Part shown: positions 10,190-12,801 of the stretch, piece by piece
Position numbering within the stretch: the stretch's first letter is position 1
How the letters are laid out: each line of letters begins with the position of its first letter
Source: a virus
Taxonomy: Duplodnaviria > Caudoviricetes
IMG/VR virus record: IMGVR_UViG_3300010338_000575
Length of the DNA: 64,000 bases
Strand: one strand, 5' to 3'
The notes under the pieces: model-generated
Databases searched by the model: none
What the model saw: the letters and a program-made list of their open reading frames with translations, nothing else
Told to the model about the DNA's origin: nothing
Program-made: the position numbers and the translations under genes

Positions 10190-12169
10190 ATGAAAATTAA
10201 TTATGAATACGGTAGTAAAGATAGGCTTTTTGAAATGTTTCAAAAGGTAAATAAAATTAAATTAACTGAAGATAATATTAAAACAAATATATTAGATAGT
10301 GCGTTTAATGATTTAATTAATAATAAATTAAATATAAAACAAACCATCAATCAAATTAATGGTGATGAAAATTTAATCACCATTGTTTGTACTGATAATA
10401 AAGGTAATGATATTGTTTTTAAATTCAGATTAATTGGTTTGGAAATGGGACAAGATGATGTCTATACTGTTGATAAAGCCGAATTAATTGAATTTAATTT
10501 TAAATCAGAAACATATGAATTAAATATTCCTGAAGGGAATTTAATATTAAATGAATTTAATGGTAAATATGGCAACAATATTGTGAATATTGTTGCAGAT
10601 TATGTTGATTTTGAAAAAAATATTGTTGATACTTTAGATGAGACCATTAAAGAATTGGAACAAACATCAAATGTGGTTGATGATTATTTGAATGATGATG
10701 ATATTGATGATAATGATGATTTTGTTGATGATGAATATACCAATGATGAACTTAATAAGAAGGATGATGATATGTTTGAACTACCACAAGAATATAATTT
10801 AGATGATATTGAATTGGATGATGAGGACAATGAGGATAACATTACAATCGATAATTTTGAAGATTATATTAATAATCAAGATTTTGATAATAAATCAGAT
10901 GAATCAAATTTAACTTTATTAGCATATAACAATTTAATTGCTAAAAATAAAACATCAAAAAATCCGAATTATTCTCCAACCAAATTCGAAATTGATAAAG
11001 AAATTGAAAGAATTAAATCTGTTAATATTAAAAAAGAGCCTAATGATAAAAAAGTGAAGGGTAAGTTTGGCAATATGATGGCTAAGGGTAAAAAAAGAGT
11101 TTATCCATCATGGGCTGATATGTTTTTACCTGAAAATATTGATAAATTTAATATTTCGTTAGATAAAACACTTGTTAATGGTTTTAATGAACTCCCATTA
11201 AATCAAAGGTATGAAATATTTAATAATGCAAAAAAAATGTTAGATGATGAGTTAGGTGATAAAAAATATAAAATTTCAAATATCGAATATTTGGATTTGT
11301 TAGGGCGTAAAGTTGTTGATTTATATAAAAATATGTTGGAATTAATGAATGAGGTAGAAAAAAGTGGTGTGAATGATTTACCAACATCAACAATATACAA
11401 TACATTTCATAATTTAAGTGATGAGAGTAAAAAAATTGTCGTGGATCGGGCAAAGAAAAAATTAAAAATTAAATATGGTGATAGAATTCATTTTTTACCT
11501 AAAGATCGATATTTGAATGAATTAAGTCGTGAAATTGTAATAATAGTTAGAAATGGATTGGAGTTAATGAATGAAAATGAAAATGATATTGAACAAATTA
11601 TTAACAATAAAAAAAAAGTCGGTGAAATTTTGATTGGTGGTAAGGGTGATTATAAACAACCAACAGAATTTAATCGTGAACAAATAATAAAAGGGTTAAA
11701 AGTTGAAAAAGAACATACAAACGACCCAATGGTAGCGATTGAAATTGTTATGGATCATTTAACCGAAGACCCTGAATATTACACAAGAAAAGAAACACCT
11801 GAACAAAGTGCACAATATGGTGCTGCGATGGATGTTGATGATGATTCCGATGATGAATTGACAAAAATTATTTTGGGTTATAAACCACACAATGTTGGCG
11901 AATCTGTTGATGTTGATGTAGATACTATGTATAGAACAATTGATAGTGTTATAAATTCGATTAGAAACAAGGTTGAAAAAAACGGATACACTGTTGATGA
12001 GCGTGATTTATGGAAAGAATTTAAAAATAATGTAATTAATGTTGGTGATAGTAAATTAAGTATAATCCCATTATATAAAAATAATCAAGTAAGTAAAATT
12101 AAATTAATGGTATTAGTTAAGAGATTGGATAGTGGTATTTATGAGTTAAAAACAAAGTTTTTTATTTAG
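10190..12169 (+). CDS. Acidic multidomain protein with a DUF5661-like domain
   Basis: GLKVEKEHT..AIEIVMDHLTEDPEYYT motif; internal repeat ending LELMNE. Confidence 0.6.
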   Translation: MKINYEYGSKDRLFEMFQKVNKIKLTEDNIKTNILDSAFNDLINNKLNIKQTINQINGDENLITIVCTDNKGNDIVFKFRLIGLEMGQDDVYTVDKAELIEFNFKSETYELNIPEGNLILNEFNGKYGNNIVNIVADYVDFEKNIVDTLDETIKELEQTSNVVDDYLNDDDIDDNDDFVDDEYTNDELNKKDDDMFELPQEYNLDDIELDDEDNEDNITIDNFEDYINNQDFDNKSDESNLTLLAYNNLIAKNKTSKNPNYSPTKFEIDKEIERIKSVNIKKEPNDKKVKGKFGNMMAKGKKRVYPSWADMFLPENIDKFNISLDKTLVNGFNELPLNQRYEIFNNAKKMLDDELGDKKYKISNIEYLDLLGRKVVDLYKNMLELMNEVEKSGVNDLPTSTIYNTFHNLSDESKKIVVDRAKKKLKIKYGDRIHFLPKDRYLNELSREIVIIVRNGLELMNENENDIEQIINNKKKVGEILIGGKGDYKQPTEFNREQIIKGLKVEKEHTNDPMVAIEIVMDHLTEDPEYYTRKETPEQSAQYGAAMDVDDDSDDELTKIILGYKPHNVGESVDVDVDTMYRTIDSVINSIRNKVEKNGYTVDERDLWKEFKNNVINVGDSKLSIIPLYKNNQVSKIKLMVLVKRLDSGIYELKTKFFI

Positions 12170-12245
12170 ATTTAAATTTTTTAATTATGGTAAAGAAATT
12201 CATGCTGATTATAATGCTGCTTTAAATATTGCAAAATCAAAATAA
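12162..12245 (+). pseudogene. C-terminal remnant of a TnpB/Cas12f-family nuclease
   Basis: Translates LFRFKFFNYGKEIHADYNAALNIAKSK*. HADxNAAxNI is the RuvC-III motif. FKFFNYG matches the zinc-finger FxCxxCG with both Cys codons one substitution from TGT. No start codon or upstream body. Confidence 0.75.
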
Positions 12246-12280
12246 TTTTTAAAAAAGTTGTTTATTTTTAATATTATTAT

Positions 12281-12288
12281 TATATTTG
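12281..12288 (+). promoter_or_regulatory. Bacteroidota-type promoter for the tracr-like RNA
   Basis: TATATTTG (-7) with TTG at about 12258 (-33); boxA-like GTTCTTTGATAT at 12319-12330. Confidence 0.6.
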
Positions 12289-12294
12289 TTGTGT

Positions 12295-12471
12295 TAAATG
12301 TTCTTATTTGAATTTAAGGTTCTTTGATATTTTGAATGGTATCCCGATTTGATATTTTATTGGGATGTGAGGGTGGTTGTGCACTCCTAAAGTGAGGTCT
12401 GCTATAATATAATTGTAATAAAAAAATCACTTAATAGCATTAGTACACTCACTAAATATCGTTCTTTTTTT
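12295..12471 (+). ncRNA. Putative tracrRNA/omegaRNA-like scaffold
   Basis: Hairpin 12341-12366. Loop GTTGTG (12376-12381) is complementary to the repeat 3' end CACAAC. ATATCGTTC (12456-12464) is complementary to repeat GAACGGTAT. Ends in T7. Confidence 0.65.
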
Positions 12472-12523
12472 GATTTAAATCTAAATGCAACAATCACTAT
12501 TACAATACTTTATATTGTGGTAT

Positions 12524-12757
12524 GGTGTATCTGATATGCATTTGAACGGTATACACAACGGTTTTACTAAGGTTGAGAAAATCTTCATAGGTGTATCTGA
12601 TATGCATTTGAACGGTATACACAACTGTGGCATTGTATTTATCATAGTTAACTTGGGTGTATCTGATATGCATTTGAACGGTATACACAACCTGAACTTG
12701 TTGGATTGTATTCCAAATGTCGGTGTATCTGATATGCATTTGAACGGTATACACAAC
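12524..12757 (+). CRISPR. CRISPR mini-array: 4 identical 36-nt repeats, 3 spacers of 30 nt
   Basis: Repeat GGTGTATCTGATATGCATTTGAACGGTATACACAAC at 12524, 12590, 12656 and 12722; unique spacers at 12560-12589, 12626-12655 and 12692-12721. Confidence 0.97.
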
Positions 12758-12765
12758 ACTAATTA

Positions 12766-12801
12766 AATAAAAAGGACTACTAAATGTAGTCTTTTTTATT
12801 T
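12766..12801 (+). terminator. Intrinsic terminator closing the array
   Basis: AAAGGACTAC-TAAAT-GTAGTCTTTTTT hairpin with T tract. Confidence 0.8.

Follow-up and report, generated by a model that had tools for sequence, protein, structure and literature searches.

A predicted type V-F (Cas12f) guide-RNA module inserted beside a native gene of an AT-rich jumbo phage

Related systems and the phage locus

The nearest described relatives of the locus reported here are the systems of Al3Cas12f and Cas12f-MG119, which belong to the Cas12f family and use a 5' T-rich protospacer-adjacent motif (PAM), and a validated single guide RNA (sgRNA) sequence of Al3Cas12f is given in the supplement of the same paper (PMC13186708). 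Related to these are the dCas12f-sigmaE systems, which are RNA-guided transcription systems of Bacteroidota (PMC12259090). Our locus lies in a 64,000-nt stretch of a tailed phage (Caudoviricetes; IMGVR_UViG_3300010338_000575), which we call the window and from whose start all positions are counted. Positions 12183-12797 of the window hold a C-terminal stub of Cas12f, a gene for a trans-activating RNA (tracrRNA) of a CRISPR system, four 36-nt repeats with 30-nt spacers, and a terminator; judging from its sequence, this stretch is a type V-F (Cas12f) guide-RNA module. By its genes the window is phage DNA, since it codes for a DNA polymerase, a helicase-primase, a UvsX-like recombinase, an exonuclease and proteins of the virion. 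It has 26.6% GC, and complete relatives of the phage have genomes of 334 and 365 kb.

The Al3Cas12f sgRNA (PMC13186708) and the RNAs predicted in the window have the same order of elements, i.e., hairpin 0, hairpin 1, a long stem 2 and an anti-repeat, followed by the part of the repeat complementary to the anti-repeat and a short tail that ends with CAAC ahead of the spacer, and the T-rich PAM on the 5' side is likewise shared. Unlike those systems, the one in the window is carried by an AT-rich phage of ~350 kb, Cas1 was not found in two complete related phages, and the window holds only the RNA genes and 20 effector codons. With dCas12f-sigmaE our system shares a related effector clade (matches of protein P0001), a homologous RNA scaffold and related repeats. 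The dCas12f-sigmaE effectors are without the C-terminal RuvC-III/zinc-finger part, are paired with an extracytoplasmic function (ECF) sigma factor and use single chimeric guides, whereas the stub in the window corresponds precisely to the part that they lack, catalytic Asp included, and tracrRNA and array are separate; rpoE is adjacent neither to the cassette in the window nor to the gene of the intact effector described below.

Arrays without adjacent cas genes and with a spacer against another virus are known as viral mini-arrays or orphan arrays (PMC11656645), and this combination, found also in the window, points to competition between viruses. Different from those arrays, the repeat in the window matches an effector locus borne by a phage and not one of the host, the module brings its own tracrRNA gene, and its one identified target is an unrelated tailed phage and not a close relative. 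Type VI-B arrays of Flavobacteriales have in common with the window the 36-nt repeat, 30-nt spacers, self-complementary repeat ends and the 3' half of the repeat; unlike them, the repeat in the window is linked to Cas12f, a tracrRNA is present and the PAM is found on the side that type V uses.

A partial copy of a Cas12f locus in the window

As far as its sequence tells, the interval 12184-12757 (+ strand; 574 bp) was copied as a segment from a type V-F CRISPR-Cas12f locus of a jumbo phage, of which it represents the 3' part. At its left end, a 27-aa frame that ends in YGKEIHADYNAALNIAKSK, with its stop codon at 12245, matches the profiles of Cas12f2, TnpB and CasX as well as Pfam PF07282 over their last ~20 positions (E 1e-4 to 1e-2), and an earlier reading of the stub from the sequence alone (hereafter the sequence-only reading) as the RuvC-III end of Cas12f is thereby borne out. 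The same reading had assigned all 27 codons to the cas gene, and this holds for the last 20 codons plus stop (NYGKEIHADYNAALNIAKSK, RuvC-III motif; 12183-12245, + strand), which are supported by identity to the intact effector and the profile matches. The preceding seven codons (12162-12182) are native phage sequence and are present also in an allele with an empty site (contig L171). What had been taken for eroded zinc-finger cysteines is likewise native sequence to the left of a clean breakpoint, and the homology with the intact gene sets in abruptly at 12182. A multiple alignment had hinted at homology with indels to the left of 12182, and this was refuted by the near-identical intact loci and by the empty-site allele.

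By searching with the Cas12f of a complete related phage (G130), we have found a 492-aa intact Cas12f, P0280, carried by metagenome contigs of the same jumbo-phage clade as the window (L166-L170, L182 and L183). The last 20 residues of P0280 are those of the stub, both terminating at the same residue, and the stub DNA is 99-100% identical to L166-L170. The region 3' of the P0280 gene, which contains the tracrRNA, is 99.3-100% identical to window 12182-12523 and is followed by arrays of seven and eight repeats, in which the 36-nt repeat is identical to that of the window and the spacers are other than those of the window. There is thus an intact homologue that has this repeat and scaffold, by which the sequence-only reading comes through the refuting test that it had set itself, and a full-length Cas12f homologue or other cas gene is absent from the 64-kb window, as the sequence-only reading had stated. 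P0280 retains GVDLG, VEDL, ADYNAA and the zinc-finger cysteines, so that the features of a type V-F effector are found at the cognate locus. Its best match in PDB is Al3Cas12f (9NZR/9NZO, E 3e-40, aligned over nearly the full length), the match to dCas12f-sigmaE (9n9c) having an E value of 3e-21. Nuclease-active relatives of the effector end in motifs resembling the stub, and for one of these, P0254 of contig L077, the best solved relative is also Al3Cas12f (9NZO/9NZR). The effector belongs to the known Cas12f family, nearest to Al3Cas12f/Cas12f-MG119 and related to dCas12f-sigmaE, and the earlier suggestion of an uncharacterised TnpB-to-Cas12 lineage has been abandoned. Ordinary TnpB genes of the IS200/605 type, with neither an array nor a scaffold close by, are present in related jumbo phages (L059:1573-2763; G125:C1:286272-286814 and 331671-332342), and the one in L059 is unrelated to the cassette.

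The manner of arrival of the segment can be read from L171, a 73.7-kb contig that codes for the identical 469-aa protein found to the right of the array and is without 12184-12757. It maps to window 9256-12183 and 12758-17243, reading GATTTAAATTTTTTA directly followed by CTAATTAAAT at the junction, and because its flanks are 99.8% identical to those of the window, the 574 bp must have been inserted, and not left over from a deletion in place. The site is between the stop codon of a native 659-aa gene (DUF5661; 10190-12169, + strand; supported by the open reading frame list, Pfam and homologues in related phages) and the conserved terminator of that gene, the stop codon and the next ~14 nt forming the left flank. 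The inserted segment begins 63 nt ahead of the stop codon of cas12f and finishes exactly where a repeat does, its junctions are ambiguous by 1-2 nt (microhomology), and there is no target-site duplication. An intrinsic terminator with hairpin and T-run does stand at 12775-12797 (+ strand), as the sequence-only reading had it, but it is the pre-existing terminator of the 659-aa gene, conserved in the cassette-free relatives and in L171, and now also closes the array. The right-hand neighbour is the native 469-aa gene (12831-14240, + strand), which served us to trace strains and alleles.

Some further observations concern this site and its alleles. A perfect 14-nt inverted repeat is present at window 12164-12177 and 12473-12486 (ATTTAGATTTAAAT/ATTTAAATCTAAAT), its left arm being native to the insertion site and its right arm standing just after the U-run of the tracrRNA; this could be chance in AT-rich DNA or could have had a part in the insertion. 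In a disrupted allele (L172:1-625), a gene for a 172-aa NPPY DNA methyltransferase abuts the last 7 nt of the second spacer and is flanked by its own repeats, direct (CTTTGTGTCCTT..AAAA) and inverted (GTTATACGCT/AGCGTATAAC). One strain of the intact-locus phage has extra islands that are absent from other strains (L184:2725-4889 and 16273-18007), which code for a GmrSD/HNH protein with an EcoRI-like methylase and for a resolvase with TnpB (IS607-like). In G130 the Cas12f locus is ~200 kb from the homologue of the 469-aa gene, showing that this locus occupies different sites in related phages.

The intact and the orphan loci probably reside in one genome of ~350 kb. In JGI 3300010347, an intact locus (L182) was found together with the identical 469-aa gene carrying an array remnant (L174), and both regions are present also in ERR14790952 and GCA_020049655.1; at the level of samples, the repeat of the orphan array is the repeat at the co-occurring intact cas12f locus. 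L166, a contig of a k=141 assembly, ends exactly 141 nt into the stretch shared with the window, as would happen if the sample contained two different sequences that run into one repeat. In addition, the helicase of L166, encoded beside the intact cas12f, is 61% and 59% identical to its counterparts in G130 and G125, which is the same divergence as that of the window's own proteins.

The predicted guide RNAs and their targets

The effector - tracrRNA - array layout that the sequence-only reading had recognised is confirmed, and so is the structured RNA between stub and array, which is homologous to Cas12f tracrRNAs and has predicted ends at ~12295 and 12471 (+ strand). It is preceded by a TAtaTTTG box at 12281-12288 (+ strand), kept at the same place in L091, L077 and L167-L170; going by the promoter consensus known for Bacteroidota, we regard this box as a putative -7 element of that type, from which tracrRNA and array would be transcribed, in line with the host-type promoter proposed earlier. 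The elements of the tracrRNA are, all on the + strand, a GTTCTTTGATAT box at 12319-12330, hairpin 0 at 12341-12366, hairpin 1 at 12371-12387, stem 2 with arms at 12392-12399 and 12444-12452, the anti-repeat AUAUCGUUC at 12456-12464, which pairs with nt 21-29 of the repeat (GAACGGUAU), and a U-run at 12465-12471. The same layout is found 3' of the Cas12f genes of L077 (P0254) and of L091, which belongs to the complete 365-kb phage G130: a TAnnTTTG box, a GTTCTTTGA box, hairpins, CACTCAC..AAATA, a U-run and an array of 36-nt repeats with 30-nt spacers. In L091, the Cas12f array is directly followed by a tRNA-like 3' fragment and then by a 96-nt tRNA-His call with anticodon ATG (6034-6177).

Window 12319-12471 shares ordered sequence blocks with the interval between dCas12f gene and array of bacterial loci. 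When a covariance model (CM) was built from 15 bacterial dCas12f elements only and both strands of the 64 kb were searched with it, the top match was 12371-12470 (+ strand) with E 0.022, the next best having 1.8, and under default filters the tracrRNA of the window scored 31 bits (E 3e-5). In a model-fitted alignment of 21 elements, a procedure that favours structure, 97.8% of cells pair and 8 of the 14 pairs are compensatory, with changes on both sides; none of 500 shuffles was as high, and controls with a slid alignment were paired at 34-44%. RNAcofold gave a shared architecture for Al3Cas12f, the window, L091 and L077, with a 9-bp duplex of anti-repeat and repeat in the window, and C24 of the repeat is paired with a G of the tracrRNA only in the lineage of the window, this position being A with U elsewhere. 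The anti-repeat typical of type V-F is thus found concordantly by the CM, the block order, the cofold, the C24:G pair and the covariation. An Rfam scan gave nothing meaningful. Presumably the RNA resembles also that of Un1Cas12f1, a literature search for whose sequence found nothing.

Between the tracrRNA and the array is a leader-like stretch (12472-12523, + strand), identical in the intact loci, which consists of a piece ending in GCAAC, possibly a degenerate repeat, and 32 nt that we call spacer 0; for spacer 0, related phages gave a match of 19/21 (E 0.35), which we leave out of account. The array itself (12524-12757, + strand) has, as had been reported from the sequence, four identical 36-nt repeats (GGTGTATCTGATATGCATTTGAACGGTATACACAAC), beginning at 12524, 12590, 12656 and 12722, and three 30-nt spacers, S1 (12560-12589), S2 (12626-12655) and S3 (12692-12721). 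It is downstream of the tracrRNA on the same strand and is read as repeat and then spacer, an orientation that is backed by the PAM side of two protospacers. Its assignment to Cas12f is supported by the same repeat adjoining the intact cas12f and by the protospacer of S1.

S1, which is specific to the window and is nearest to the tracrRNA, matches a viral contig, L164, at 30/30 positions with a 5' TTTT flank. This contig encodes terminase, portal, major head and tape-measure proteins and belongs to an unrelated tailed phage, i.e., the array has a spacer against another virus. The oldest spacer common to the intact arrays matches the same contig at 28/30 with a 5' TTTG flank. TTTN occurs at ~5.6% of positions on the relevant strand, so that both protospacers would be flanked by it by chance with a probability of ~0.3%, and a 5' T-rich PAM is accordingly present at both. 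A spacer of the orphan array of another contig, L001 (S1'), matched L165 at only 22/30 without a T-rich flank and was treated as chance; a phages database gave no match to the locus and only chance-level matches to S1-S3. The window and L001 are 99.5% identical over 4 kb, array included, and the leader-proximal spacers differ between them as they do between the intact arrays of L167 and L170. Because these tracr-proximal spacers differ between otherwise near-identical strains, the orphan array must have changed after its insertion.

The repeats closest to that of the window are from Parapedobacter, where they have a 66-nt period, are without Cas13b and come after genes for an ECF sigma factor and for a TnpB/Cas12f-like protein that is truncated; these loci are the dCas12f-sigmaE system of PMC12259090. 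Between rudimentary arrays of the Parapedobacter loci we have noted PIN-domain genes (L042:10898-11311 and L043:11187-11624), with TonB-dependent receptor genes next door. Cas13b was found only beside the related repeats of Bergeyella and Flavobacterium covae (L041:10400-12000; L040), and these VI-B repeats share a TTTGAAnGGTATnnACAAC 3' half, the 36/30 geometry and self-complementary ends with the repeats of the Cas12f/dCas12f clade, the shared core being the part that pairs with the anti-repeat in Cas12f loci. In F. covae AL-02-36 (L045-L047, G001:C1:3184982-3188564), the cas13b located upstream of an array with 11 repeats is interrupted in several frames by numerous stop codons, and in the Cas13b array of Bergeyella the period changes from 66 nt to ~118 nt, with repeats that are long and composite (L030:329-891).

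A satellite array and the alternatives

We consider, with a probability of roughly 60%, that the locus is a satellite module of tracrRNA and array, which would load in trans the Cas12f of the phage itself and direct it against a competing phage. Of the sources of an effector that the sequence-only reading had listed, supply in trans from elsewhere in the genome appears to be the best supported, on the basis of the P0280 locus with the same repeat and tracrRNA. According to this proposal, the 3' part of a Cas12f locus, i.e., 20 codons, promoter, tracrRNA, leader-like stretch and short array, has been copied between a native gene and its terminator, giving a module that encodes no protein of its own. 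It would be transcribed from the TAnnTTTG promoter, the tracrRNA would pair through AUAUCGUUC with nt 21-29 (GAACGGUAU) of each repeat, and the repeat-spacer guides would load the 492-aa P0280, whose gene at the complete locus most likely belongs to the same genome of ~350 kb. P0280 would then cut the DNA of the competing phage beside a 5' TTTN PAM, and the satellite array would in this way add guides to the phage's own Cas12f system.

Several results weigh against this proposal. The contigs with the intact locus do not overlap the window and give no physical linkage of that locus to the genome of the window. For S2 and S3 no targets were found, their 22-mers in IMG/VR matching only the array of L001. 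The anti-repeat duplex energy alone (RNAduplex) is no better than that of shuffles in this AT-rich sequence, and the fold z-score of the single RNA sequence is not significant, so that we have assigned the anti-repeat by position, homology and covariation. Furthermore, the module is dispensable, since the empty-site strain L171 exists; in 7 of the 10 contigs examined for the site the methyltransferase cassette abuts the last 7 nt of S2 and only repeat-S3-repeat remains beside the 469-aa gene; and at 12385 the window has T where the intact locus has C, by which hairpin 1 has G.U in place of a G-C pair and the CM score falls from 37 to 31 bits. The last three points, together with junction microhomology of only 1-2 nt, as in non-homologous capture, are also what would be seen if the segment were a recent functionless duplicate, produced by illegitimate recombination or break repair, pristine only through youth and with RNAs that contribute nothing. 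This we regard as the main alternative, possible though on balance unlikely, because no helix of the tracrRNA has been lost, nor has the anti-repeat, and pairing survives the lone substitution as G.U, the four repeats are all identical, the array has changed after insertion, and S1 matches perfectly, with the correct PAM, the same phage that is targeted by the intact array.

The other explanations that we have examined appear much less probable. A decoy or hijack, in which the phage tracrRNA and CRISPR RNAs (crRNAs) load a Cas12f or dCas12f-sigmaE of the host and thereby sequester or redirect it, has a precedent in viral arrays that use host Cas proteins (PMC11656645), and the scaffold has homology with those of the guide RNAs at dCas12f-sigmaE loci of Bacteroidota. 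A perfectly matched effector of phage origin exists, however, no host effector with the window's repeat was found (the host not having been identified), and the spacers resemble ordinary anti-phage spacers, and we leave to this explanation only a slight chance. The sequence-only reading had supposed that the effector gene was deleted; a complete cas12f would then once have stood at the site and have lost ~1.4 kb, which would fit the stub being contiguous with tracrRNA and array in their native order. Since L171 reads straight across the site, nothing is present there in 12 related phages or in the complete relatives G125 and G130, and the sequence to the left of 12182 is native and not decayed cas12f, such a deletion is very improbable, and we have replaced it by the insertion of a partial copy.

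Least probable of all is a type VI-B mini-array that borrows a host Cas13b, with spacer-repeat crRNAs for RNA targeting, which had been our first idea from the similarity of repeats and was dropped on the homology of the scaffold and the intact Cas12f with the same repeat. The repeat does share 25 of 36 positions and the TTTGAAnGGTATnnACAAC half with that of Bergeyella, whose array follows an intact Cas13b (NF038190, 876 bits), it resembles the F. covae repeat, and both protospacers are antisense to genes of L164. Yet the identical repeat adjoins an intact Cas12f with its cognate tracrRNA, the conserved core of the repeat is exactly the part that pairs with the anti-repeat, and the TTTN flanks of both protospacers, which chance would seldom give, are on the type V side. 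No Cas13b-linked array with the window's repeat was found, the pattern used for genomes being one base off and unable to match it, and a metagenome scan with the 3' half of the repeat gave only chance matches inside coding sequence.

An extension of the satellite proposal is that the tracrRNA-plus-array unit is itself copyable and has kept gaining leader-proximal spacers after being pasted to a second site. The right end coincides precisely with the edge of a repeat, and this is a hint that the reaction was of the integrase type or directed by the repeat, and not the repair of a break at random. We hold this idea to be doubtful at present; if it is true, a jumbo phage uses the adaptation enzymes of its host to update two guide-RNA loci that serve one phage Cas12f.

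The present analysis documents a compact Cas12f system, with a 492-aa effector, a tracrRNA and a TTTN PAM, in a clade of AT-rich jumbo phages, together with a variant that we have not seen described, namely a second effector-less locus with its own tracrRNA gene. Reconstitution should be straightforward, since we have defined the effector, the tracrRNA and the repeat as well as two natural protospacers and their PAMs. The orphan locus is polymorphic in the population, with empty, full and disrupted alleles and base-exact insertion junctions, and these make the spread of guide modules and the acquisition of spacers by phages testable questions. Turnover of the array between near-identical strains and a target in an unrelated tailed phage are direct sequence evidence for the use of CRISPR by phage against phage.

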